Shown in pieces: positions 20,590 through 38,836 of a stretch of DNA of 64,000 nt. Below the pieces are notes generated by a model. It was not told the origin of the DNA. It saw only the letters and a list, made by a program, of their open reading frames with translations, and ran no database searches. The position numbers and the translations under genes are program-made. Source of the stretch: Bdellovibrionales bacterium (lineage in GTDB: Bacteria; Bdellovibrionota; Bdellovibrionia; Bdellovibrionales; JAUICD01); contig OZ241865.1 of NCBI GenBank assembly GCA_965203275.1, positions 2,240,001-2,304,000 of the forward strand, written 5' to 3'. Position 1 is the first letter of the stretch; each line of letters opens with the position of its first letter.

Positions 20590-21290
20590 TATCCGCCATT
20601 TATATAATGTGTTAGCTTTTTATTTGAATTAATTAGCCATTGATCAATCCTTTTGCCACCAATATTGCCAGTAGCATTAATATTAAAAATGACTTCACTT
20701 CCTCTATTATTAACACCATTAGGACTATAGCCACAGTTGCCTGTACCTCCTGGTGGTGTTTTATTACATTGTCCTCTAACCATGTTATCAAAAGTACAAG
20801 TTACTCCAGTGCCACAGTCTGGACAAGCACACGTACCAGTAATCTTCATCCTCGGAGTCATGCTATCATTTGGATGGAAGCTCAATACACCCGGAGCAAA
20901 ATCAAAGTTCATTTCTAGTGTATTAACTTCATCTATATCTGTAGCTAAAGGACCATCATAGCCACCACCTGACACCTGAGATCTGGCCGTTACGTTGACA
21001 TTTATTCCTACAGCTACTTTGTCTCTTATATGCCATCCGGCCATATAATAAGCATCTCCTATTTGGCTATATCCCATTTGTCGTAGGTTAGGTGTTCCAA
21101 CATCCCACTCGGTGATAAATGTCATTTGGGCCCCATAAATACCACTAAGTATTGTTTTAGCATTGGCTTGAATAGCCTTTCGTTTAAATTGACCATATTG
21201 TGGTACGGCAATCACAGCTAATATGCCAATAATAGCCACAGTAACCATTATCTCAATTAAAGAAAATCCTTTTTGATTTGATCTGTCCAT
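20589..21290 (-). CDS. Type IV pilin
   Basis: GFSLIEIMVTVAIIGIL; Cys-rich variable C-terminus. Confidence 0.92.
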   Translation of the reverse strand: MDRSNQKGFSLIEIMVTVAIIGILAVIAVPQYGQFKRKAIQANAKTILSGIYGAQMTFITEWDVGTPNLRQMGYSQIGDAYYMAGWHIRDKVAVGINVNVTARSQVSGGGYDGPLATDIDEVNTLEMNFDFAPGVLSFHPNDSMTPRMKITGTCACPDCGTGVTCTFDNMVRGQCNKTPPGGTGNCGYSPNGVNNRGSEVIFNINATGNIGGKRIDQWLINSNKKLTHYINGG

Positions 21291-25829: not shown

Positions 25830-26383
25830 TCTTGTTTCCCTAACATTGTGTCAATCCGGGATCTGGGATCCGGGATCCAGCAACCCGGCATCTGGTCCTA
25901 GAAATGAACTTTTTCCTTAACATCGTGTTAAAAAACGAGGAGATCCTTTCTACTAAAAGTGGTCAGGCTTTCTAGGTTGCCAGTAGTGATGAAGGAATTT
26001 TTTCCTTAACATGATGTTAAAAAAGGAAGAGATCCTCCCTACTAAAAGTAAACGGACTTTTGAGGCAATGACCATTTTGCCAATGGCAAAAAAAGTGAAA
26101 TAAATATCTTGTTTCCTTAACATGGTGTTAAGAGACAAAGAGATCCTTCCTACTAAAAGTAAACGGACTTTTGAGGCATTGCTCTTTTAATATAATTTTG
26201 AAAGCATTGTGTTTCCTTAACATGCAGTAAAAAAATGAAGAGATCCTCCCTACTCAAAGTGAACAGGCTTTTGAGACAATGACCATTTTGTCAACGGCGA
26301 AAGCCGTTGCGGTCATTGTCCAAAAGTGGCCAGAGGCCAGTTCACTTTGAGTGAAACAGAGGCTAGTTTACTTTTAGTGAAAA
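25830..26383 (+). repeat. Cluster of dispersed structured elements abutting the CRISPR array
   Basis: Several 5' modules and a full copy at about 26213..26355. Confidence 0.9.
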
Positions 26384-28103
26384 CAGTAGGAAGGGTTTTG
26401 ACTTATGCTTATGAAAGTTCCAGGTTTAGTTGCAGGAACTGTTGGTAGAGGAGTTTCAGTAGGAAGGGTTTTGACTTATGCTTATGAAAGAGAGGCTGGA
26501 TGGGAACATTTATTGACGAATTACAGTTTCAGTAGGAAGGGTTTTGACTTATGCTTATGAAAGTTGTTAAGGGATATATTGATGGTCGCTTCTTTACAAG
26601 TTTCAGTAGGAAGGGTTTTGACTTATGCTTATGAAAGCGAATATATTATGCATTTAGATACACTTACAACAGGTTTCAGTAGGAAGGGTTTTGACTTATG
26701 CTTATGAAAGCAAAGAAAGGATGGGCATCGGCAAATCCTTTTTATAGTTTCAGTAGGAAGGGTTTTGACTTATGCTTATGAAAGTTTATACAGGCAACAA
26801 AGCACTAAGACTTAAACGCGTTTCAGTAGGAAGGGTTTTGACTTATGCTTATGAAAGCCGGAAGAGTTGATCAGTATATTTGGGATAAGTTTGTTTCAGT
26901 AGGAAGGGTTTTGACTTATGCTTATGAAAGCTTCCCGTATAGCTTTTTCTGCATTGCTTTATGTTGTGTTTCAGTAGGAAGGGTTTTGACTTATGCTTAT
27001 GAAAGCCTACACACCGCCTTTATGCGTGGTAGTGAAAGGTTTCAGTAGGAAGGGTTTTGACTTATGCTTATGAAAGCTCACAAACGCACTTTCTTTGTCT
27101 TGATCTTGAAAGGTTTCAGTAGGAAGGGTTTTGACTTATGCTTATGAAAGAGACCTTGACGATAGTGATGGCAGTGAAATTGATAGTTTCAGTAGGAAGG
27201 GTTTTGACTTATGCTTATGAAAGTCAGTTCAGTTTACTAAGTTAAATGAGATATTTAGTTTCAGTAGGAAGGGTTTTGACTTATGCTTATGAAAGTGCAC
27301 TTCAAGCGGTCTAATGACCATCTTAGTTTTAGTTTCAGTAGGAAGGGTTTTGACTTATGCTTATGAAAGGAAGAGCCTGGTGATGGTGACTTAACACTTG
27401 CAGGGTTTCAGTAGGAAGGGTTTTGACTTATGCTTATGAAAGGTGATAATTGGTGATGAGATATTGGGTAAGCAATTAGTTTCAGTAGGAAGGGTTTTGA
27501 CTTATGCTTATGAAAGGAAGAGCCTGGTGATGGTGACTTAACACTTGCAGGGTTTCAGTAGGAAGGGTTTTGACTTATGCTTATGAAAGGTGATAATTGG
27601 TGATGAGATATTGGGTAAGCAATTAGTTTCAGTAGGAAGGGTTTTGACTTATGCTTATGAAAGGGGTTTATGATTCCGCAAAAGCTCAAGCTGAAATAAG
27701 TTTCAGTAGGAAGGGTTTTGACTTATGCTTATGAAAGTTAAACCCCGAAGCCGTCGCCCCACATGCAAATAGGTTTCAGTAGGAAGGGTTTTGACTTATG
27801 CTTATGAAAGCAAGGTCAATATGGTAACCTGTTAGGTTCTTAAAAGGTTTCAGTAGGAAGGGTTTTGACTTATGCTTATGAAAGCCAAAGTTAAATAAGA
27901 GACCTAAAGGTACACAAATGTTTCAGTAGGAAGGGTTTTGACTTATGCTTATGAAAGGTTGTATCTCTTTAGTTCTCTTTCCCTCGGTTCCTGTTTCAGT
28001 AGGAAGGGTTTTGACTTATGCTTATGAAAGGTCATTACGACAGCTTTTCTTACAGCTTTACGTATGTTTCAGTAGGAAGGGTTTTGACTTATGCTTATGA
28101 AAG
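26380..28103 (+). CRISPR. Type II-B CRISPR array, 24 repeats (first degenerate) and 23 spacers of 33-37 bp
   Basis: 38-bp repeat GTTTCAGTAGGAAGGGTTTTGACTTATGCTTATGAAAG. The GTTTCAGT start resembles the F. novicida repeat. Orientation inferred from tracrRNA pairing. Confidence 0.99.
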
Positions 28104-28237
28104 GCTTAAAATATCCTACGGATTGCAATGGGTTAGGGGTGATATGATGTGTTATTTTTCGAAGAAAAGTATATTGTAAAAAATATGCTTGATTTTGCGA
28201 AGACATTTTACCACCTCCTACTCATAGCTCTAGTAGC

Positions 28238-28391
28238 CCTATAGTATAAGTTAAATCTTTTAACCACTGTAATCATCTGATGATGTGATCAAATCATATA
28301 TAAATCATATATGATTTGTCATAAACAAAAGAGAACAAAAACTTAAGGGTTTTGTGACCAAGCCACTACCAAAGGTACGCTTGGTTTTTTT
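28238..28391 (+). ncRNA. tracrRNA-like RNA, divergent scaffold, copy A
   Basis: Anti-repeat AGTATAAGTTAAATCTTTTAACCACTGTAATC, then hairpins and an ACCAAGC..GCTTGGT-T run terminator. Confidence 0.7.
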
Positions 28392-28430
28392 ATACTCCTA
28401 TACTTTTCTATCATTGCAATAGTTTAAATC

Positions 28431-28496
28431 CTGAGTTTGATAGCCTGCCTGAAAAAAAGAAAATGTCCATATTCGCAAATCAACTGTCAAACTCAG
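28431..28496. mobile_element. 66-bp MITE-like element with 13-bp terminal inverted repeats
   Basis: CTGAGTTTGATAG ... CTGTCAAACTCAG. Related ends at about 8389, 8408, 24181 and 44067. Confidence 0.55.
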
Positions 28497-28518
28497 AATT
28501 GTGTTCAAGGACATTTTG

Positions 28519-28662
28519 TTTCCTTAACATCATGTTAAAAAATGAGGAGATCCTCCTTACTAAAAGTAAACGGACTTTTGAGGCAATCAGCCTTTGATCG
28601 ACGGCAAAAGCCGTCGGGCTGATTGCCCAAAAGCAACCAGAGGTTGGTTTACTTTTAGTGAA
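28519..28662 (+). repeat. Dispersed ~142-bp structured element
   Basis: Full copy between the two tracr-like duplicates. Confidence 0.9.
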
Positions 28663-28741
28663 AATCAGAAAAGTATATTGTAAAAAATATGCTTGATTTT
28701 GCGAAGACATTTTACCACCTCCTACTCATAGCTCTAGTAGC

Positions 28742-28884
28742 CCTATAGTATAAGTTAAATCTTTTAACCACTGTAATCATCTGATGATGTGATCAAATCA
28801 TATATGATTTATCACAAACAAAAGAGAACAAAAACTCAAGGGTTTTGTGACCAAGCCACTACCAAAGGTACGCTTGGTTTTTTT
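28742..28884 (+). ncRNA. tracrRNA-like RNA, divergent scaffold, copy B
   Basis: Near-identical duplicate of copy A (28667..28884 versus 28163..28391). Confidence 0.7.
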
Positions 28885-28954
28885 ATTTCTCTATCATTGC
28901 AACTTAATTGCAATACTGAAAAAGATTGTAGGCAAGCATAGGTTTTTTATACTC

Positions 28955-29533
28955 CTATACTTCTCTGTCATTGCAATAGTTTAAATATTCACATTGTCCA
29001 CATTGATGAGCCGTAGCATCACTTGGTGGTTTGTGGTTATCAAATAGCATTTTAAATATTTTGTCCACAATTAATTTTAACTTTTCACGTTTTTCATTAT
29101 CTATTTCAACGACTTTAAGCTTTCCATCTCCTGTTAAAATAAAACCATGACTTGCTTGTTTACTAAAATGTTTTTCAGCCAACAAAGCATAAGCTAGTAA
29201 TTGCATAATATGACCAGAATTAACTTTCTTGCCTAATTTATATTCAACAGCAAAAACACGATCAGGTGTTTCAATAATCAAATCAGATATGCCATGAAGC
29301 CTTAAAGTTTTATTTTTCAAATTTATATTATGATGTTTGATACCTTCTTTCAGGTGAAATCGAGATAAATTTCTTCTTTTAAATAAAATAGTCTCACGTT
29401 GATGATATGCACCACCTTGCTTTGACCAAAGTGGCTCTAAGGCTTTCATGCCAAGCAGTTCTCTATAATAAACTACTCTAGGACAAAAACACCACTGCCT
29501 TAATAAATTAATAGGTAAATTATAGTCCTCCAT
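28955..29533 (-). CDS. cas4: CRISPR-associated Cas4
   Basis: WCFCPR, GISD..VEYK, C..CEY..YC Fe-S cluster cysteines. Confidence 0.95.
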   Translation of the reverse strand: MEDYNLPINLLRQWCFCPRVVYYRELLGMKALEPLWSKQGGAYHQRETILFKRRNLSRFHLKEGIKHHNINLKNKTLRLHGISDLIIETPDRVFAVEYKLGKKVNSGHIMQLLAYALLAEKHFSKQASHGFILTGDGKLKVVEIDNEKREKLKLIVDKIFKMLFDNHKPPSDATAHQCGQCEYLNYCNDREV

Positions 29534-29837
29534 ACTCTCTCCAGTCTTTAAAATCATTTTTCTGATAACCTACACAAGTTGTATACTTACCAAAATAATT
29601 AATAGCAATAGGTGTGATCAAACATTTATCAGATGGTTCTAACGAATCCTTAACATGCCTAGCAATGGCATTGTATTCTGCCTTTGTTAAAAAGCCCCAA
29701 AACACTGATTTTTGTATAGGGAATAAACCATAATCTCGCAATATTTGAAATAACTTTGTCCTTTTTTTGTTCTCTTCAATGTCATAAGAGATTAAAAACT
29801 CACTTCTTATAGATTTGACAGGCATAATATTCACCAC
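29520..29837 (-). CDS. cas2: CRISPR-associated Cas2
   Basis: LISYDI..NKKR, YGLFPIQKSVFWG. Confidence 0.95.
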   Translation of the reverse strand: MVNIMPVKSIRSEFLISYDIEENKKRTKLFQILRDYGLFPIQKSVFWGFLTKAEYNAIARHVKDSLEPSDKCLITPIAINYFGKYTTCVGYQKNDFKDWREYGGL

Positions 29838-30795
29838 TTAAATAAATAAGGTTTATATTTTTGTCTTTCTTGAAAATAACCGCTTAAACGATAAACCTGC
29901 CTTTGAATAATATTTTCTAATCGCACTTTTTTCTTACGATAAAGATGCCTTTTTGCTAAAACTTTTTGAACTTCATTTATAAGTTCTTTTTTAAGAGATG
30001 GCTCCAGAAACTTTTTATCAGAAGCATTTTGACGTAACTTGATCACAGCACGATCCACAACTTGAGCTCTATATTCTTCCATTAAATCTAAAACCAAAGA
30101 AGGTTTCCCTGGGCGTTGAACATGGTAAAAACCAAGGTAAGGCTCTAAGCCAGCATTCACAATAGCATTGAAAATATAACTACTTAAAATAGCATATCCA
30201 AAGTTCAACATAGCATTGGCAATCTCTTGACTACCACGCCCTTCCCTTGTTTTAAAACTTGATGGCAAAAGTTGACTTTGAACAAGAGCTTGAAAATAAC
30301 TTTTAGAAGCAAAGCCTTCTATACCTAAAAGCCTTGTTATATCTTCACTTCTACTAGCTGTATTAGCTTGCTCTTTAAGGATTTCAGAAGCATCAAATAA
30401 GGCCTGATGTTTATGATATTTGTTTAAATGATTTAAAACTGCACGTTGATTACGTATTTTCCCGTAAACAACTTGACGTGATAAAGCAAGATTTCTTTCA
30501 TCACAAGCCTTGATTTGACCTTTCTTACTGCAACCACTGCATGTTGATGACTTGCTACAAGTCCGCTGTGAGCTACACCCCTAAAATCAAGAAAGAATAA
30601 TTTAATCCCTCTTAAAGTAAAAGATTCTATAAGGTCACTCGAAAAGGTCACCCCACGTTTGGCAATAGACAAAGTCGAAAGGCGATTTAAAGGGAAGATA
30701 TATTCCGAAGGTGATTTATTTTTATTGACTACAACTAGTAAGCCACTACGAATCCCTACATAAGTTCCATAATTAAATATCACTAAATGTTTCAT
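29831..30795 (-). pseudogene. cas1: CRISPR-associated Cas1, split by a single 1-nt frameshift near 30521
   Basis: Adding one A at AGA-AAG-GTC gives a continuous frame: RKGQIKACDERNLALSRQVVYGKIRNQ...LLGIEG...NAMLNFGY...GFYH...LDLMEEYR. Confidence 0.92.
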
Positions 30796-30970
30796 TGACC
30801 TTATCTTACAATATCTTATAATAAAAAACCGGTCGTATAAACTCCCGGATGAAAATTTCGGATGAATATTTTTTAATTCTTTATTGTTCTTAGAATAGCA
30901 TATTTTTACAAATAAATCAAATAAAAAACAATTCTAAGACAAGTTTTATCATATTGAGACATTATGGATT

Positions 30971-31795
30971 TTATTTTAAGGAATTATCATTTTTAAAGAC
31001 AGCCTGCAAAAGAGCTTGTTTGACTTTTTCGTTTAAACTTGAACCTATGTATTCAATGGGTTGATTAATTTCTTTTAATTTGTCTAAATCACTGGTTGTT
31101 CTTGCCTTTGTTAAAGGATCGTTTTGAATGACCTGAATACTTTCATCATTTAATTGATCTATGGGAGTTAATTTTATTTTAGGTCTTGTGACATTATCAA
31201 TTTGATATTCTAGTTTTTTTACAAATGATTTTAACTCTTTGTGATCATCTAAGTTGATATTAATCCAGGAGTCAGGGATATGTTTTATATGATCTTTTTC
31301 AAGAAAAAAATCTTTAGTATCTTTAGTATTCAAGTTTAATTTGAATTGTTTCTTAGAGCGGAAGGGCTTATTGATAACTTTTTTCAATTCACCTTTAGTT
31401 CTATTAATAGCAAAGCTAGAGAATTTATTCCCATCTTTTTTTGAATTAGAATCACTCCATATCTGATATATTGGTTTTTTATTCCAAGAAGTTCTTTTTT
31501 GAAGTGTGTGTCCTCCCTTTGTAGGCACTGGTAAAGAAAACATTTTTCTAACTTTTTGATGTTGATGATATTTTTGATTTTTAAAAATAAGATGATCCTT
31601 TAGAAAATCTTTAAGTGATAATTTAGGGTTTTGATTTCTTTTTTCTTCCCAATCTTTATGTAACCTATACCATTGCTCTTTAACTGGCAAAGTTAATGTT
31701 TTCTTTTCTATTTTAATTTCAAAAGCTTCTTTTTTGATCATTTGAGCTTTGCAGTGTAGCTGATCAGCTATACACTGAAGCTTTTTTAAATCCAA
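30971..31795 (-). CDS. Stand-alone Cas9 C-terminal (WED/PAM-interacting) domain ORF
   Basis: TLPVKEQWYRL, HQKVRKMFSLP, KRTSWNKKPIYQI and YQIDNVTRPKIKL match the FnCas9 C-terminus (recalled). Possible ATG at 31741. Confidence 0.85.
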   Translation of the reverse strand: MDLKKLQCIADQLHCKAQMIKKEAFEIKIEKKTLTLPVKEQWYRLHKDWEEKRNQNPKLSLKDFLKDHLIFKNQKYHQHQKVRKMFSLPVPTKGGHTLQKRTSWNKKPIYQIWSDSNSKKDGNKFSSFAINRTKGELKKVINKPFRSKKQFKLNLNTKDTKDFFLEKDHIKHIPDSWININLDDHKELKSFVKKLEYQIDNVTRPKIKLTPIDQLNDESIQVIQNDPLTKARTTSDLDKLKEINQPIEYIGSSLNEKVKQALLQAVFKNDNSLK

Positions 31796-31907
31796 ATTAT
31801 TTTTTAAGCCCTTTTGATCTGTTAAAGGTATGATCTTTTGTGGGGAAAAAATAATTTATAAAAAAATAAAAAGATTGCTTGATTTTACAGGTAGAGTATT
31901 TTATCTT

Positions 31908-32045
31908 CTTTTTTCATAAGCATAGGTTAAAATTCTTAACCGCTGTAATCATCTAAAAGCATCTTGAACGGACCTCTACATCGCGTACGTCTGCCCTTCT
32001 TAAAGAAGGGATCACTTGCCACCTCTAAAAGGTGGCATTTGTTTT
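31908..32045 (+). ncRNA. tracrRNA, F. novicida-like scaffold
   Basis: Anti-repeat TTTTCATAAGCATAGGTTAAAATTCTTAACCGCTGTAATC, then CATCTAAAAGCATCTTGAACGGACCTCT..ACGTCTG and a TTGCCACC..GGTGGC terminator, as in Fn tracrRNA. TTGATT-17-TATCTT promoter upstream. Confidence 0.9.
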
Positions 32046-32099
32046 ATGAGTATTTTACAACAATGACTAGGATTATTTGTGATGACTGATTCTAGATAT

Positions 32100-32336
32100 T
32101 CAACTTGATACATTACGCCAAGCCTTTTTATGAGGTATACGTTTTTGTTTTTTTTGAGATAGACGTCGATCGGCTACCTTAGAAAAATAAAAATCTTCTT
32201 GTAATTCTAAAGCTTGATGAATTAAGTCTAAGCTCAATGTAGAAAGTTTTTGTTGTTTCTTTTGAGATAACTTATCTAATAATAAATAAGTTTGATGGTC
32301 TATTGTTAAATTGATCTTTTTTTTCATAACAGGCAT
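32100..32336 (-). CDS. RHH/CopG-type antitoxin followed by a truncated RelE-like toxin start (MYQVEYLESV at 32113)
   Basis: KINLTID, LDLIHQALELQEDFYF..A..R, IPHKKAW. The overlapping downstream ATG loses toxin-like character after about 12 codons. Confidence 0.7.
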   Translation of the reverse strand: MPVMKKKINLTIDHQTYLLLDKLSQKKQQKLSTLSLDLIHQALELQEDFYFSKVADRRLSQKKQKRIPHKKAWRNVSS

Positions 32337-32433
32337 TAAATATCCCCTATCTCCTTATTTTTTATAAAAAATTGATTTAAATATATACTTCTACAATAAC
32401 CTTAAAATCATTCACTGTCAAATCTTTTTTGTC

Positions 32434-33375
32434 TTATATTTGCTTATTAGGGATGCAAGAGTATTTAGAGGCTTCATATCTTTTAGTAATTTGTTCACAC
32501 CTTGTTTTAATAGAGCAAAATAATTCTTTATCAATTTGAAAGTTTGCTGGTGTAAATAAATCAATCCTTCGATCTTGCCTTATACGTTTTGCTTTAGTAA
32601 TAATTCTTTCTTGGGATTCTTTTGGATCAAACACGCCAATAGTCATCCCTCCTCTGGCTCTCACAAGGGAAAAGGCAGGAATATCTGTATCCCCATCGCC
32701 AATATAAATCATGTTTTCAAATGGACACCATTCTTCCCCTTTAGATACAAAGTCGTCCACCTTGTATGAAGATTGCTTTTTAAAACAGCCCTTTTGGATT
32801 TCAAATAAGGCTCTTGTTTTAGACGTTTTATCCATACAGTAGATAGGGATATTTTTTTCAATTTTTTTAGTCTTTATATCTTTAATAGCTTTATATTTAC
32901 ATCCAAAAAATTGATGAATTAGAGAAGTTTCTTTGTGACATTCAAACACAGAAGATACTAAGTCCTGAAGCCCTGCTGTTATAATAAAATGATGTATGGC
33001 CATATTGTTATCTTGATAGAGTGGTTGAGAGGATAAGTTTTTTATTTCTTTAAGTCCCTTTAAAACATCAGGGTAAAATTTTATTTTATAAGCAATAAGA
33101 CTTTCAAATGTTCCTTTATCATCTAAAGCTATTTTTTTGCCTTGCTGATCTTTAGCTATTTCTGACAAGCGATACATCCAAACAGGAGCTTCACTGGTTG
33201 AGATAGAATCCATTGGTTCTTTTGCATCTACTCCTGATATTTCTTTCACATCTATCCAAAACTGTTTTGTTGCTTTTTTTCCTATAAAAAGTTCAATTAA
33301 CTCAGTTGTAGAATCATTTGAAGTAAGGGTTTTGTCAAAGTCCCAGATTATAGCAATATTGTTTTTTTTATTCAT
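32434..33375 (-). CDS. HAD-superfamily hydrolase
   Basis: WDFDKTLT motif I, IITAGL motif II, KT..LFEI.KG, YIGDGDTDIP motif IV. Confidence 0.9.
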   Translation of the reverse strand: MNKKNNIAIIWDFDKTLTSNDSTTELIELFIGKKATKQFWIDVKEISGVDAKEPMDSISTSEAPVWMYRLSEIAKDQQGKKIALDDKGTFESLIAYKIKFYPDVLKGLKEIKNLSSQPLYQDNNMAIHHFIITAGLQDLVSSVFECHKETSLIHQFFGCKYKAIKDIKTKKIEKNIPIYCMDKTSKTRALFEIQKGCFKKQSSYKVDDFVSKGEEWCPFENMIYIGDGDTDIPAFSLVRARGGMTIGVFDPKESQERIITKAKRIRQDRRIDLFTPANFQIDKELFCSIKTRCEQITKRYEASKYSCIPNKQI

Positions 33376-33388
33376 ATTTAAAACACAT

Positions 33389-33889
33389 TTATTGAGGTGG
33401 TTGATTTGATACTTCTTGCTCTTTTTTTCTCTTTTCTTCTCGCTTGTAAAACTCTTTCCAGTTTTCTTGGACTTGTGGGTCATCCCAAGCTTTCTTATTA
33501 AGCTGTTGAATCCTTCCATAATCAAAAGGCTTTTGAGATGTGTCCATTTCTTTTTGTTTTTCAGCTTTTTCTTTTTGCTTTCTTATTTTTTCTCGCTTGT
33601 AAAACTCTTTCCAGTTTTCTTGGACTTGTGGATCAGCCCAAGCCTTCTTATTAAGTTGTTGAATCCTCTGATAATCAAAAGGCTTTTGAGATGTGTCCAT
33701 TTCTTTTTGTTTTTCAGCTTTTTCTTTTTGCTTTCTTATTCTTTCTCGCTTGTAAAACTCTTCCCAATTTTTTTTGACTTGTGGATTAGCCCGGGCCTTT
33801 TCTTTGAGTTGTTGAATGTTGCTATAATCAAAAGGCTCTTGAGATGTGTCCACTTCTTTTTGTTTTGTGATGGTTGCTACTTTACTCAT
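33389..33889 (-). CDS. Hypothetical protein of three 51-aa tandem repeats
   Basis: 3 x 153-bp repeats (DTSQxPFDY..IQQL..KA...PQV..NW.EFYKRE). GAGG RBS. Confidence 0.75.
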   Translation of the reverse strand: MSKVATITKQKEVDTSQEPFDYSNIQQLKEKARANPQVKKNWEEFYKRERIRKQKEKAEKQKEMDTSQKPFDYQRIQQLNKKAWADPQVQENWKEFYKREKIRKQKEKAEKQKEMDTSQKPFDYGRIQQLNKKAWDDPQVQENWKEFYKREEKRKKEQEVSNQPPQ

Positions 33890-34013: not shown

Positions 34014-37000
34014 TCAAGATGTTTTATTATTTAACAACCACTGTTTTACTTGTGTTGTTTTTGGAATTGTGAACTCAACTGTTACTATATCATCAAATGA
34101 TTTAATTTTAACTTCATTTCGATCTTTAGGAAATTTAAAAGGTTGAGAAAACCACTGAAAATCTGAAGACATAAGATGATAATCGCTTCTATTGGTTTCT
34201 TTTGCTTTTTTAAAATTTTCTTTATCTTCATAGAGTTTAATTTTTCCTTTCCATGAATCTCTCTTAGAAATAAAAGGAATAGAAATTTTACCAATATCGG
34301 CTATATTCATAGTGATCTTTGCATCACATCGACCTGAATCTTTATGCCTAACTTTAGCACATTGAATGCAACTATCAGTTATATCTTTTTGAGATATAGT
34401 CATCCATTCTATGGGTTCAATATTCCAGCTTTGAGGTAATCCTGAATAATGTTTTTTAGGTACAGAGTTTTGACTTAAAATAGTATGGGGCCTATCTTTT
34501 CCTTCAAGTCCATACTTTGCCAATGAATCGTCTGATACTGTTTGAATAATTGTTTTTCTATCCCATGTGTTACGTCTTAATCGAATATTTCCTATTGTTG
34601 TAAGTATAGGCAATGAATATACTTTTTTTACTTTTTGATGTGGATGTTGATGATCTTCTTCACGACGAAATAAAAGACACTGTTGAAGAAACTTTTGCAA
34701 AGATTGATTGGGATCAGTTTCATCAAGCTCTGATTTAAGTTTTTCCCAAGAACTATAAAAAGGTAACAAAATTTTATCTTTACTAATAAACTTTTGATTT
34801 TTCTTTTCTATGATGCACTTACTCCAATTGTCAATAGCATCTTTGACTGTTTGAGGCTCTTTTTTGCCATTTGGTGTGAGTGCTGTTTGGATTTTAGTTT
34901 TGATAGTTTGATAACTTAGACCATCAAGTAATTTAGCTTGCTTTTTTTCATCTTTGTCTGCTTCACGAATACCAATATCCATCAGAAATTCTTGTGCCTT
35001 TTTCTTATTTATAAACCATAATTGATAATTTTCATCTGAAAATTTTGATCTTATCAAAAACTCCTGATCTCTTAATAAGTGAAAATCTTTTTCTTGATAA
35101 GATACTGCATTTTTGGGATGAAATCCTTTTTGTATTGTACCATCATCATTTTGAATCAATGGGAAAAATCTCTCTCCTATACTATTATCTCTATGTATCT
35201 TATAACTGATTTTAATTTGTTCTTTTTTATTTTGACTTAATAATTGGCGATGATGAGTTTCTACTGTGTAAGCTTTTCTTTTTTCTAAACATTTCTCTTG
35301 CAGTTGGTTTGGTGGAACTTTGATTAGATTAAAAATAAGGTTTTTAGTCACTTCACCTGTGCCTCTATTCATAGGCTCTAAATGAATATTTTGATCTATA
35401 TTGAGTTTAAGGCTACCCTCCTTCTTATGTTGATCTACTGCAATGGCAAAAGCTAAAGTAGCGTCTATTAAATGAGAATACGGCTTTTGAGAGTTACCTT
35501 CTTTAGCATAATCTTTGAATTCTGAAATATTAGAATATTTTTCATAATCTTTTCTTAGATCATAAATGCCATCACCTCTTGTATTAGACTGAGCCTCTAC
35601 TCCAAACCAATCAAAGCAAATTTGATCTTGCCAACCAGCACGTTTAGCTTTTTTATAAAAATTATTAGCAAGTACTTGAGCAAAATGTGGTTGTGTCCCA
35701 TTAACAAATGTCTTTGAACGGCTACTAATAGCATCAATGACTTTTTGATGCAATTCATGGTCTGTTAAAAATAAAGCATGTCGAAAAGCCCTCTGCTCAT
35801 CAGAAGTTAAGTTGATCAAGTTAGTGTATTTGCCAAACTTAAAATCTTCACCTTTACCATGACCTATTTGCTCCTCAATCCACTTCATAATCTTTTGATG
35901 ATCTGTTGTACCAAATAATTTTTGTTTGTATTTATTATGTAATTTTTGTATTTGTAAAGGATTGTTTCCTTTTGTCTTTAATTTATCAATACCTTCTAAG
36001 TAATAAACGACTTTATCATCTGTTAATCTTTTTTGATTCTCTGGTTGTTTTTTATTATCTGTATTTTTTGCATTTGGATTTTGATCTTGAGAATCAATAA
36101 ATTTCTCTAACTGTTGATTTGATATTTGCAAAACAGTAGCTAAGTCTTTTAATAACTGGTAACGCTTTTGCCGAGGCTTGTGATTACAATAAGTTAAAAG
36201 ACAATCCCGATCTTCAAATCGACCTGTATCTTCATAGCCTCGCCCTTTAACCAAACGATATCGTGGGTGGATAAATAATCTGCCATCTTTTGCCCTTTGC
36301 CTTAATTTGTAATATTTGCAAAGTAAATGAAGAAATGATTTTTGCTCAAATAAATCATCTGTTTGAAAGTTTGGTGTTGTTTCTAGGTGATCTGGTAACT
36401 CACTCTTTTTGATCACATCTTCTAATTTGCTTTTGGTTTCTGAAATATCTTGGCCATCTCTTTTAAGTTGTTTGATTTTTTTAGCATGGCTAAAAATTTC
36501 ATTGAGGTTTAAAGGATCATCCTTTTTAACTCTATCAAAAATAAATTGCAAAATCCTTGCATCAAGGTTTTTTTGATTTCTCTTATAGGTATCTTTTTTC
36601 AATTGATCAGCTTTTTGATTGTTAAAATATGGCTTCTTTTGACCACTTTGTAGACCTTTTAGCTCACTTTCAAAATCTTCTAAATAATTTTGAGATAACT
36701 CTTTAAGGCTACTTAGCCACTCTTGCCATTGAGGATATTTGCTATCTAAATATACAGGATTAAGAATTAAGCTTTGACAATGAGGAGGACGACGATTGTT
36801 ATTATTTTGATAAGGAGGAATGGTCCATTTAGGGTCTTCTCTAAGCCAAAAGTCAATCACACTGCCTGTTTTGTTTTCTTTATCATAATAAGTTTTCCAG
36901 CATTTTTTTAGTTTGTTATAGTCATAAGCTTCATCTTGGCTTTTGTCTTTGTCTTTTTCTGTCACACGCCATTGTTTATCAAGCCATCTATCAAAATATT

Positions 37001-38393
37001 TATTAAGTCTTTTTTCACACCAATAGTCACCTTCTTGATGCTTGAAATCATTAAAGTATTTTCTGAGAGGTTTTAGTTCTAAATTACTGAGATGACCAAT
37101 TAAGTGGGTAAGGCTCTCAACAGTGAGAGGCTCTCTGTTTGTTGGTTTATATCTTTTTGAATGCAGATTTGAATGCAAATGATCACAAAACACTTTTAAA
37201 AATTTATTTTGCTTCTTTTGTTTTTCAGAATGATTTTTATATTCTAAAACATTTTTAACTTCTTCAAAGTATTTGCTACGATGACGACCACCTGATTTGA
37301 GTTCCTCAAGATTTTGATAGATTGCAAAAGCCAAATGATTCAAATGTGTTTTCTTCCATTCAAGTTTCTTTTTTTGATAGTCATTGTCTTTTGATTCTTC
37401 TCTTTCTGGCTCATCAAAAGCATTTTCTTCTATCTTTTTATCTAAGTCTTTAAAACTTTCTGATTTAAAATTCCAAAAAGAGTTTTTTATCTCCTGATCT
37501 TCTGTATCCGGCTCTGGAAGATGATCTTTTAATTTTTGAATGTTTTCTTTTCTATCTTCTAAATACTTAATGAAATTCATTGTGTTAGAACTAAATGCTG
37601 ACTCTTTGTTTTGCTCTGTTTCATTTTCTTCTTTCCAATGATCCCATTCTTTTAATATTGATGAAAAGAAATCTTGAGTTTGCTGATGAGAACTTTGTTT
37701 CTGCCATTCCTCTATAATCCATCTTGATACATCAGATAATTTTGATTTGTTTTTATTTTGCTTATCTTTGTAATATTTTTGAGGATCTGTACAAAGCTTT
37801 TTAATTTCTTTTGTTCTACTAATGAATACTTGCCTTGAGGCCATTCTGTTAGGTTCTTTATTTATAGCTTCATATATTTTATCTAACTTTTCTTGTCCTT
37901 CTTTAGTCCATTCTTGTATGGCTGTATCAAAATCATAGCCATCTTGATTTTTCTCAACTCCATCTGGTAATTCTTTTGGCAATTCTTCTGGTAATTCATT
38001 ATAAACCTCTGTTGGAAACTGGCTTAAAATTTCAGCATTATACTGCTCTGTCAAAAAACTAAAGCCTCTGCGGTTCAACAAAAAACTAATGGTTTGTTGT
38101 ATGTCAGAATTCCACTCTAAACCAAACCTCTCACACCAAATCAACTTAAAAAGCCTTTTGACCATTTGACGACGGTCAAATCCTCTCTTTTGATGACGTT
38201 GAGCTGTGCGATCTCTCATCAACAATGTATAAGCGTCTTTTTCTAGCTGATAAATCTTACCCTTTTGATTAAGAGAAGTTTTAGAGCTTAACTCTGTTCC
38301 TTCAACATAATGAGCCGTATAAACTCCAGTTGCTTTAGCTCCTAAATCAATAGCAATAGGATGAATTATTTTTTTCTTGCGATTTTGAGACAT
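34014..38393 (-). CDS. cas9: Type II-B Cas9 (Csx12) with internal in-frame deletion of distal REC3, RuvC-II and the HNH core
   Basis: IAIDLG, RTAQRHQKRGFDRRQMVKRL bridge helix, SGGRHRS, LSNLELKPLRKYFND, TFVNGTQ and SHLIDA present. No ITESNAF or DHIIPRS motifs. GGAGG RBS at the 38393 ATG. Confidence 0.95.
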   Translation of the reverse strand: MSQNRKKKIIHPIAIDLGAKATGVYTAHYVEGTELSSKTSLNQKGKIYQLEKDAYTLLMRDRTAQRHQKRGFDRRQMVKRLFKLIWCERFGLEWNSDIQQTISFLLNRRGFSFLTEQYNAEILSQFPTEVYNELPEELPKELPDGVEKNQDGYDFDTAIQEWTKEGQEKLDKIYEAINKEPNRMASRQVFISRTKEIKKLCTDPQKYYKDKQNKNKSKLSDVSRWIIEEWQKQSSHQQTQDFFSSILKEWDHWKEENETEQNKESAFSSNTMNFIKYLEDRKENIQKLKDHLPEPDTEDQEIKNSFWNFKSESFKDLDKKIEENAFDEPEREESKDNDYQKKKLEWKKTHLNHLAFAIYQNLEELKSGGRHRSKYFEEVKNVLEYKNHSEKQKKQNKFLKVFCDHLHSNLHSKRYKPTNREPLTVESLTHLIGHLSNLELKPLRKYFNDFKHQEGDYWCEKRLNKYFDRWLDKQWRVTEKDKDKSQDEAYDYNKLKKCWKTYYDKENKTGSVIDFWLREDPKWTIPPYQNNNNRRPPHCQSLILNPVYLDSKYPQWQEWLSSLKELSQNYLEDFESELKGLQSGQKKPYFNNQKADQLKKDTYKRNQKNLDARILQFIFDRVKKDDPLNLNEIFSHAKKIKQLKRDGQDISETKSKLEDVIKKSELPDHLETTPNFQTDDLFEQKSFLHLLCKYYKLRQRAKDGRLFIHPRYRLVKGRGYEDTGRFEDRDCLLTYCNHKPRQKRYQLLKDLATVLQISNQQLEKFIDSQDQNPNAKNTDNKKQPENQKRLTDDKVVYYLEGIDKLKTKGNNPLQIQKLHNKYKQKLFGTTDHQKIMKWIEEQIGHGKGEDFKFGKYTNLINLTSDEQRAFRHALFLTDHELHQKVIDAISSRSKTFVNGTQPHFAQVLANNFYKKAKRAGWQDQICFDWFGVEAQSNTRGDGIYDLRKDYEKYSNISEFKDYAKEGNSQKPYSHLIDATLAFAIAVDQHKKEGSLKLNIDQNIHLEPMNRGTGEVTKNLIFNLIKVPPNQLQEKCLEKRKAYTVETHHRQLLSQNKKEQIKISYKIHRDNSIGERFFPLIQNDDGTIQKGFHPKNAVSYQEKDFHLLRDQEFLIRSKFSDENYQLWFINKKKAQEFLMDIGIREADKDEKKQAKLLDGLSYQTIKTKIQTALTPNGKKEPQTVKDAIDNWSKCIIEKKNQKFISKDKILLPFYSSWEKLKSELDETDPNQSLQKFLQQCLLFRREEDHQHPHQKVKKVYSLPILTTIGNIRLRRNTWDRKTIIQTVSDDSLAKYGLEGKDRPHTILSQNSVPKKHYSGLPQSWNIEPIEWMTISQKDITDSCIQCAKVRHKDSGRCDAKITMNIADIGKISIPFISKRDSWKGKIKLYEDKENFKKAKETNRSDYHLMSSDFQWFSQPFKFPKDRNEVKIKSFDDIVTVEFTIPKTTQVKQWLLNNKTS

Positions 38394-38836
38394 AAAACCT
38401 CCATAAGGCTCAATATAAGTGCTAAAATCGCTAAGGTATAACAATCTTTATTTATTGTCAAACTCAATCGTCAGACCCATTCATTAAGAGTGACCTTTAG
38501 AGATCTCATGCGAGGGGATCGTGTTTTTCTCTATAATACATCAAATTGTCAGAGTGTTTCTTTAGGAAGTGGTATAGTGGGAGATAATATTCCGGGATCC
38601 GGCATCCGGCAACCCGGCAACAAAATGACAAAAGGAAAAGGAAATAAGGCAGAAAAAATGCGTAAAGACATTATAAATGGTTAGAAAGATTGAAAATATT
38701 TTAAACCTTTTCAAAATAAAATTTGTGGATGCTAAATTTTATAAAAAGATGTTGACAAACAAAATAAAATATGGTTTACAGACAGTTTTTAGTCTACAAA
38801 TAAAAAACAAAAATAAAGCTGTGAATTACTTACATT

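Follow-up and report, generated by a model that had tools for sequence, protein, structure and literature searches.

How can a single CRISPR array be served by two trans-activating CRISPR RNAs (tracrRNAs) of different structure? This question is raised by a type II-B CRISPR-Cas locus of a Bdellovibrionales bacterium, located in a stretch of 64,000 nucleotides (GenBank assembly GCA_965203275.1, contig OZ241865.1, positions 2,240,001 to 2,304,000; hereafter the window, whose numbering is used unless a contig is named). A previous sequence-only reading had proposed that one pool of CRISPR RNAs (crRNAs) could be routed to two different ribonucleoproteins (RNPs), or that the second RNA acts as a decoy or regulator. 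We found that this second RNA, tr2, is by its anatomy a genuine, deeply diverged type II-B tracrRNA. What is new here is such a divergent II-B scaffold standing beside a canonical one, tr1, on the same repeat, in a broken locus. The account that we favour, with moderate confidence, is that two II-B systems were joined on one repeat, with tr2 as the native tracrRNA of the resident module and tr1 as that of an incoming Cas9 (cas9B), and that the nucleases were subsequently lost. The locus is probably a relic rather than a working two-channel system.

Two tracrRNA scaffolds on one repeat

The plus strand of the locus carries the CRISPR array and three tracrRNA-like genes:

26380–28103, plus strand: CRISPR array of 24 repeats of 38 nt and 23 spacers (21 unique), crRNA sense on the plus strand
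28104–28242, plus strand: leader, with inverted TTTTCG/TTTGCG motifs as in related II-B leaders and a predicted long imperfect hairpin
28243–28391, plus strand: tr2a, divergent II-B tracrRNA
28747–28884, plus strand: tr2b, second copy
31879–31907, plus strand: consensus-like tr1 promoter (TTGATT, 17 nt, TATCTT)
about 31912–32046, plus strand: tr1, canonical Francisella novicida (Fn)-type II-B tracrRNA

The description of tr1 as a near-canonical Fn-type tracrRNA placed inside the cas operon was borne out. It scored 110 bits with a covariance model of 35 II-B tracrRNA rows, tr1 itself included, and is located between an open reading frame (ORF) for a PAM-interacting (PI) domain (PAM, protospacer adjacent motif) and the gene block upstream of that ORF. 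Its anti-repeat (to 31949) and core (from 31943) are followed by stem-loop 2 (about 31969–31993), an extra hairpin and a terminator (32017–32046). All elements of a II-B tracrRNA are found in tr1: anti-repeat, core, 21-nt spacing, stem-loop 2, promoter and terminator. A canonical tracrRNA is also carried by 36 of 36 related GTDB loci (33 detected by pattern, 3 by the covariance model), these being the loci of a set of 39 that have cas4 and an array and were counted complete; many of the related loci carry the names of Bdellovibrionales or of other uncultured bacteria.

Two copies of tr2 are indeed present between cas4 and the array. The stretches 28163–28393 and 28667–28886 are 94% alike, and the two RNAs differ by three substitutions and an 11-nt tandem duplication in copy a. 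By inspection, two stem substitutions turn Watson-Crick into G-U pairs, and the structure is intact in both copies. In tr2a, the anti-repeat (28243–28273) and the core (from 28267) precede a long hairpin H1 (28276–28332), a short hairpin H2 (28335–28355) and stem-loop 2 (28356–28386), which is followed by a U tract. The corresponding parts of tr2b are H1 at 28780–28825, H2 at 28828–28848 and stem-loop 2 at 28849–28879, again with a U tract. As had been claimed, the core is shared with tr1 (30 of 36 nt), and the invariant TGTAATCA is present 3′ of the lower stem. Furthermore, the region 5′ of tr1 aligns with the region 5′ of tr2 (p 0.0002, 5000 shuffles).

Co-folding with the repeat predicted a tr2 duplex in the same register as that of tr1, over repeat positions 1–30. 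The tr2 anti-repeat is the weaker of the two, as had been noticed (−22.0 kcal/mol, against −36.5 to −37.3 kcal/mol for tr1, which pairs with the entire 38-nt repeat), and it also falls short of the II-B median strength of −28.9 reported in the available part of PMC6546382. Pairing nevertheless extends to 27 of 29 positions, with U-U oppositions only at position 4, as also in tr1, and at position 17. In the upper stem, 18 of 20 positions are paired, whereas none of 43 foreign repeats exceeds 16 (median 13). The energy match is modest, since 1% of 20,000 random 45-mers of the genome reach −22, and tr2 forms a duplex of −23.2 with one of those foreign repeats, but out of register. We also considered whether a second array and Cas9 are the true partners of tr2. 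This was rejected because the II-B repeat, its tracrRNAs and this cas9 are not found elsewhere in the genome, and because the duplexes of tr2 with the repeats of the three other arrays are weaker (−11 to −19).

The last hairpin of tr2 is a II-B stem-loop 2

The sequence-only reading regarded the 3′ part of tr2 as unrelated to tr1 and as ending in its own terminator. The long and short hairpins that it described exist (z −5.4 and −3.7), but the two other statements must be revised: the last hairpin is a homologue of the II-B stem-loop 2 with its internal loop kept, and it is this stem-loop 2 that runs into the U tract. The canonical covariance model ranked the tr2 copies as the next-best sites after tr1 in 16 kb (19.6 and 15.9 bits; the following site scored 12.3). 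Invariant in the 35 canonical rows are the TGA, a stem closed by C-G, the C-N-C-T loop, the inner hairpin and the A-C. The last hairpin of tr2 has the C-N-C-T/A-C internal loop, the C-G closing pair and the TGA, all in register, while its outer stem has been rebuilt by compensatory pairs. The stem-loop 2 pattern is matched by 30 of the 35 canonical rows and, across the 2.57-Mb genome, by 14 sites with a stem of at least 5 pairs. If the TGA is required in register, exactly three sites remain in the genome: tr1, tr2a and tr2b. Shuffled 3′ parts of tr2 produced the pattern in 1 and 2 of 20,000 cases.

The covariation of stem-loop 2 was evaluated on 31 hand-chosen rows (29 relatives, tr1 and tr2a). 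Two-sided changes were found at 8 of 8 pairs and 92.7% of the cells were paired, as in none of 500 shuffles, while slid controls gave 23–34% of paired cells. In this stem, tr2 alters positions that are conserved in 90–100% of the relatives. The idea that tr2 is a decayed canonical tracrRNA devoid of stem-loop 2 was rejected, because the stem-loop 2 pattern, the covariation and the comparison with outgroup tracrRNAs all contradict it.

The spacing between the core and stem-loop 2 is 21 nt in canonical tracrRNAs and 22–29 nt in the outgroup types, as compared with 76 and 87 nt in tr2. The excess of 55–66 nt folds as the long and the short hairpin. Since tr2 lacks the compact spacing (and scores 16–20 bits with the canonical model), it is a variant outside the canonical scaffold group. 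Each of its peculiarities has a smaller counterpart elsewhere: a 20-nt hairpin is inserted at the H1 site in the related locus L017, a hairpin occupies the H2 site in L068, L071, L072, L074 and L090, and stem-loop 2 runs into a U tract in the outgroup tracrRNAs of L067, L090 and L095. The L017 tracrRNA (L017:18357–18517) is the sole one found in that locus, whose cas1 is interrupted. A search of the window against Rfam gave no match at gathering scores, and none of relevance up to E 5 in 28000–32300.

As a separate observation, the H1 apex (28293–28320 and 28797–28814) resembles the repeat of the host II-C array at 16 of 18 nt (p 0.001–0.003 by shuffles; 0.1–0.5% of genome windows). This likeness was spotted post hoc between two AT-rich palindromes and may be due to chance.

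Two Cas9 pieces of different clades

The order on the minus strand is cas9B, three small genes, the orphan PI ORF, cas1, cas2 and cas4:

28955–29557, minus strand: cas4, open frame
29520–29837, minus strand: cas2, open frame
29831–30795, minus strand: cas1, split by a frameshift
30971–31795, minus strand: cas9A remnant (PI ORF), WED end and PI domain
32100–33889, minus strand: an ORF of 78 aa, the gene of a HAD-family protein and a repetitive ORF of 166 aa, located between tr1 and cas9B
34014–38444, minus strand: cas9B, encoding a II-B Cas9 (1476 aa) shortened in frame (junction near 35973/35972)

Cas9B has lost RuvC-II and most of HNH in frame: it aligns to residues 8–694 of FnCas9 (PDB 5b2o) and then from residue 998 onward. 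It does not possess the full set of RuvC-I, RuvC-II, RuvC-III and HNH expected of a functional Cas9. All 119 other homologues among the best 120 of 195 matches retain the missing segment. A Cas9B of the same deleted length occurs in two database records that are one residue apart. Contigs of two samples, X4 and X7, stop precisely at the deletion junction 35973/35972, which suggests a branch in the assembly graph, caused either by an intact allele in the population or by a plain single-nucleotide polymorphism.

The PI ORF is 36% identical to the end of Cas9B and 51% identical to the C-terminus of the Cas9 of G001, a genome of the same genus in which cas9 lies directly before cas1. Its core is near-identical to the protein P0121, which continues upstream to RuvC-III, and the homology to P0121 begins near residue 16–20 of the ORF. 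On these alignments, the PI ORF is what truncation has left of a resident cas9 (cas9A). The P0121 locus was not found in the viral contigs or plasmids searched. What looks like an exchange of the PI tip was noticed at 30971–31170: the remnant and P0121 are almost identical over about 190 residues, differ over about 45 residues at the PI tip and then converge again. A near-perfect palindrome (31752–31777, by eye) lies where the homology of the remnant stops.

In a quick tree of 56 rows, cas9B and the PI remnant fall in different starred Cas9 clades. The former groups with the canonical-scaffold loci L015, L017, L018 and L035, the latter with P0121, L050 and, more loosely, L069, whose tracrRNA is divergent. 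These data agree with the parallel that had been drawn between two scaffolds and two PI domains, and two past tracrRNA-Cas9 pairs are a fair reading of them. A quick tree of Cas1 and Cas4 (57 rows, 8 near-duplicate loci excluded beforehand) gives the module of the window a long branch and places it outside the starred group of canonical-scaffold loci (39 rows).

The acquisition genes are damaged as well: cas2 and cas4 are open, whereas cas1 is frameshifted, and the X4 contig, which comes from another study, shows no indel there relative to the window. Antisense to cas1, a plus-strand stretch at about 30487–30535 that spans the frameshift forms a duplex of −29.8 kcal/mol with the repeat, probably by chance.

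The proposal that one crRNA pool feeds two RNPs has to be divided in time. For the past it is fair, given two II-B builds on the same repeat and two Cas9 clades; for the present it fails, with cas9B devoid of RuvC-II and HNH, the PI ORF truncated and cas1 frameshifted. Judged from its reading frames, the present genome can make neither RNP a nuclease. We consider it very improbable that two RNPs act today in another way, one consisting of tr1 and a binding-only Cas9B, the other of tr2 and a PI-only protein that stands alone or complements Cas9B. In favour are the open frames of both ORFs, the recurrence of the 1476-aa protein in the two records and the good tr1 promoter. However, the REC lobe and the bridge helix of Cas9 hold the guide, and the PI ORF has neither; its first 15–19 residues are not derived from Cas9 and P0121 shows that the gene was cut. 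Moreover, the Cas9B deletion occurs in none of the other homologues counted above, and apart from the spacer of the V-A array described below, no target of a II-B spacer was found in the genome.

Relatives carrying two tracrRNAs

Two canonical tracrRNAs were found in 2 of the 36 complete GTDB loci (L046 and L049) and in none of the other 34; L056 and L057 also carry two. They are located at L046:7658–7947, L056:870–1150, L057:4085–4360, and L049:16705–16865 and 20602–20762. These loci have one Cas9 each where it is seen, and their two tracrRNAs have different anti-repeats. In the three loci with a visible array, the repeats start with GTTTCAGTAA.

The existence of such loci brings in the main rival explanation, in which tr1 and tr2 are old paralogues within the locus. 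Two inherited tracrRNAs would serve one array and one Cas9, as in some relatives; one would have stayed canonical, whereas the one nearer the leader would have diverged through enlarged hairpins and compensatory changes and worked with any Cas9 present, and the second Cas9 piece would be unrelated to the scaffolds. Several observations fit it. The inner hairpin of stem-loop 2 closes with A-U in all four double-tracrRNA loci, as in tr1 and tr2, and the leader-proximal copy is the weaker partner in L049 and L057, as in the window. A hairpin at the H1 site is tolerated in the sole tracrRNA of L017, and the guide of PsCas9 contains an extra hairpin that makes little contact with the protein and can be trimmed, according to the available part of PMC11544209. 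The scaffolds are, however, near-identical within each of the four double-tracrRNA loci, whereas tr2 changes the most conserved stem positions, and the Cas1 and Cas4 of the window do not group with those of L046, L049 and L057. We therefore hold this explanation to be rather unlikely. The two scaffolds of the window differ at positions conserved in 90–100% of relatives while their anti-repeats and upstream regions are alike. The merging of two II-B systems is the simplest account.

Duplication of tr2 and promoters

The duplicated unit comprises half of the leader, tr2 and the last cas4 codons, and a dispersed repeat element lies between its two copies:

28394–28429: copy of the last cas4 codons, travelling with the duplicated unit
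28453–28663: pieces of the dispersed repeat element, between tr2a and tr2b
28667–28746, plus strand: duplicated leader half 5′ of tr2b, without a good −10 box at the usual distance

With a length of about 150 nt, this element yields 918 strong matches in the genome, 669 of them near full length (about 120 kb). The X4 contig is one unbroken sequence of 2202 nt that runs from the end of the element through tr2 to cas1, with the letters of copy a at the site of copy b. Since a second, near-identical copy should interrupt a de Bruijn contig, the X4 sample probably has a single tr2. Gaps in run coverage, such as the 5′ half of cas9B in X4, were excluded from the evidence. The duplication is most likely recent, strain-level and incidental. 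Pieces of the element also lie at 26209–26383, where they cut the first II-B repeat, and the V-A array is interrupted as well (G000:C1 near 245700); both insertions are just 5′ of a CAGTAG stretch. Between tr2b and cas4, 28929–28946 holds an 11-nt stretch identical to part of the tr1 anti-repeat (by eye) and adjoins another partial copy of the end of cas4.

With an ad hoc promoter score, tr1 reached 15.5, equal to the median of 44 relatives. The tr2 copies gave 11–11.7 at the usual position, about 30 nt upstream of the core, which is below the background median of the genome (12.5); scores as low are seen in about a tenth of the relatives. A −35/−10 pair, TTGACT-17-TAAAAT (28084–28112), is present at the last repeat, directed into the leader, 155 nt upstream of the copy-a core. 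In the predicted read-through RNA, the leader folds out and the last repeat pairs with tr2a. Such an RNA could adopt a single-guide-like shape for the last spacer, but the usual II-B layout would give this shape in any case.

These elements bear on the suggestion that tr2 still acts as a regulator or decoy. In that case it would be transcribed, copy a from the last-repeat promoter or by read-through, and would compete for repeats or for Cas9B, thereby damping or redirecting the system. The small CRISPR-Cas-associated RNA (scaRNA) is a mimic of the crRNA, with a degenerate repeat and a short guide, that pairs with a tracrRNA. The RNAs tracr-L (10.64898/2026.06.01.729453) and vsgRNA (PMC12231574) have a short guide and a repeat-like stem, as far as the available parts of these reports describe them. 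Like tr2, all three are extra Cas9-associated RNAs besides the normal tracrRNA, and Cas9-regulating RNAs are thus known. In contrast to them, tr2 bears an anti-repeat. Its 5′ extension contains no guide followed by a repeat-like lower stem (p 0.16) and no promoter target; its candidate guides match nowhere else in the locus, and no clear scaRNA-like partner was found among 7048 genome sites scanned. The identities of tracr-L and scaRNA were rejected for tr2, which is an anti-repeat RNA without a guide. The intact structure of both copies, the promoter pair and the read-through fold speak for regulation, but the promoter at the usual distance scores below background, copy a may be absent in X4, and with a dead nuclease and a broken cas1 little is left to regulate. 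The suggested regulatory role thus found no support in these searches, and we regard it as improbable.

Genome and array context

The host genome consists of a single contig of 2.57 Mb with 35% GC. Away from the II-B locus it also contains a V-A-like locus with an effector of 1325 aa (G000:C1:238802–246064), a II-C-like locus with a Cas9 of 1047 aa (G000:C1:1990534–1995534) and one more array, with runs of identical spacers (G000:C1:369370–370461), each assigned from ORFs and repeats alone. A Cas4 profile search of 401 genomes of the phylum gave matches in 3, including this genome. In the II-B array, a block of two spacers is duplicated exactly (27329–27622). The third spacer (about 26564–26599) matches the first V-A spacer (G000:C1:245324–245350) at 26 of 27 nt, from which it appears that the two systems have sampled the same stretch of one invader. 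The phage collection searched for PAM inference contained no spacer target. Self-targeting as the cause of decay was rejected, since the sole good spacer match lies within the V-A array. The HAD protein (32434–33525) matches the PADLOC candidate defence system PDC-S34 (E 2e-45), and distant homologues of it also lie near cas9 in L014 and L049.

Discussion

We infer the history of the locus, and the assignment of each tracrRNA to a Cas9, from the anatomy, pairing, homology and broken genes observed in it. The resident module would consist of the array, the leader, cas4, cas2, cas1 and cas9A, with tr2 as its native tracrRNA built of anti-repeat, core, an enlarged H1, H2 and a stem-loop 2 that doubles as terminator. 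The canonical-scaffold tr1, fitted to the same repeat, would have arrived with or for the second Cas9, through the joining of two II-B systems that had the same repeat; alternatively, the resident 5′ part (leader, anti-repeat and core) may have recombined onto a canonical 3′ scaffold. By analogy with known type II biology, each tracrRNA would anneal to the repeats of the precursor crRNA, RNase III would trim the duplex and Cas9 would be loaded. Later, most of cas9A would have been deleted, cas9B would have lost its nuclease core and cas1 would have been frameshifted, while tr2 was recently duplicated beside an element repeated throughout the genome.

Several points weigh against this history. 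The cas9A-like enzyme of G001, 51% identical to the remnant, is paired with one canonical tracrRNA, and enzymes of this kind thus do not need the tr2 scaffold. Double tracrRNAs occur with a single Cas9 in L046, L049 and L057, so that two effectors are not required. Five of the seven differences between tr1 and tr2 keep the pairing, which is not significant under a transition bias (p 0.05–0.39), and the upstream region of tr2 scores equally or higher against the leaders of other loci (up to 46, as compared with 41). The stem-loop 2 pattern was composed after tr2 had been seen, and its figures are somewhat flattering. Both trees are quick and unrooted, with a long branch for the window, and the direction of events is taken from the gene order. 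Finally, no second locus with the full tr2 design was found, although the searches do not prove that none exists: an exact 22-nt tr2 pattern had no match in the metagenome contigs, blastn of the tr2 3′ part against 133 loci gave a best E of 1.4, and four other genomes of the family gave short matches at most (best 35 nt, E 9e-5, in the A-rich part).

The closest known system is the FnCas9 dual guide of F. novicida (PMC3737331 and PMC6546382, in the parts available). The order cas9-cas1-cas2-cas4, with tracrRNA and array on the opposite strand, is common to both loci, as are the G-U closed lower stem and the core; the tr1 scaffold is canonical and tr2 retains the stem-loop 2 internal loop. The window differs by its two scaffold types on one repeat, by 76–87 nt in place of 21 nt, and by a nuclease-dead Cas9, a truncated second cas9 and a broken cas1. 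Several tracrRNA candidates per locus have been described before. A Lactobacillus gasseri II-A locus has two anti-repeats (PMC3737331), and 'multiple solutions' were filtered out in the pipeline of Dooley et al. (10.1101/2020.09.02.279885); in the available text, these cases are read as intermediates, whether of a duplication, a relocation or a second acquisition. Unlike these descriptions, the window combines two different 3′ scaffolds with two Cas9 clades in one locus. PsCas9 also has a II-B scaffold with an extra hairpin, to which tr2 is likened by description rather than by sequence, but one tracrRNA per locus. Its guide fails with FnCas9, which indicates that II-B guides can be orthogonal (PMC11544209 and PMC10482872, as far as available). 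The full texts searched, which excluded supplements and most subscription papers, offered no account of one array with two types of scaffold; loci of this kind may be contained in the tracrRNA tables that supplement PMC6546382, PMC3737331 and the preprint of Dooley et al.

A model of anti-repeat 'reset' and inter-locus recombination, in which anti-repeat and 3′ part are reshuffled, has been put forward (PMC6546382, in the part available) as a scenario still awaiting events. The locus of the window is a candidate real case of such modular reshuffling, with one anti-repeat and core joined to two scaffolds that had diverged much earlier, and the invariant core is likely to be the joint of the recombination. 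The value of a single locus with broken effectors is limited. It nevertheless maps the fixed letters of the II-B scaffold, in the internal loop of stem-loop 2, and sites that may tolerate 55–66 extra nt, which is useful for guide design. If the two-scaffold reading is true, tr2 would represent a new natural class of II-B scaffold with large tolerated insertions, and tr1 a recombinant tracrRNA in which a resident anti-repeat was joined to a foreign scaffold. If sister strains keep both Cas9s intact, this would be a one-array, two-effector type II system, of which none was found in print. It is possible, if doubtful, that until recently the lineage, and perhaps still its sister strains, had one array read through two orthogonal II-B scaffolds by two Cas9s of different clades and PI domains. 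On the two-scaffold reading, PAM coverage would have been widened from one spacer memory.

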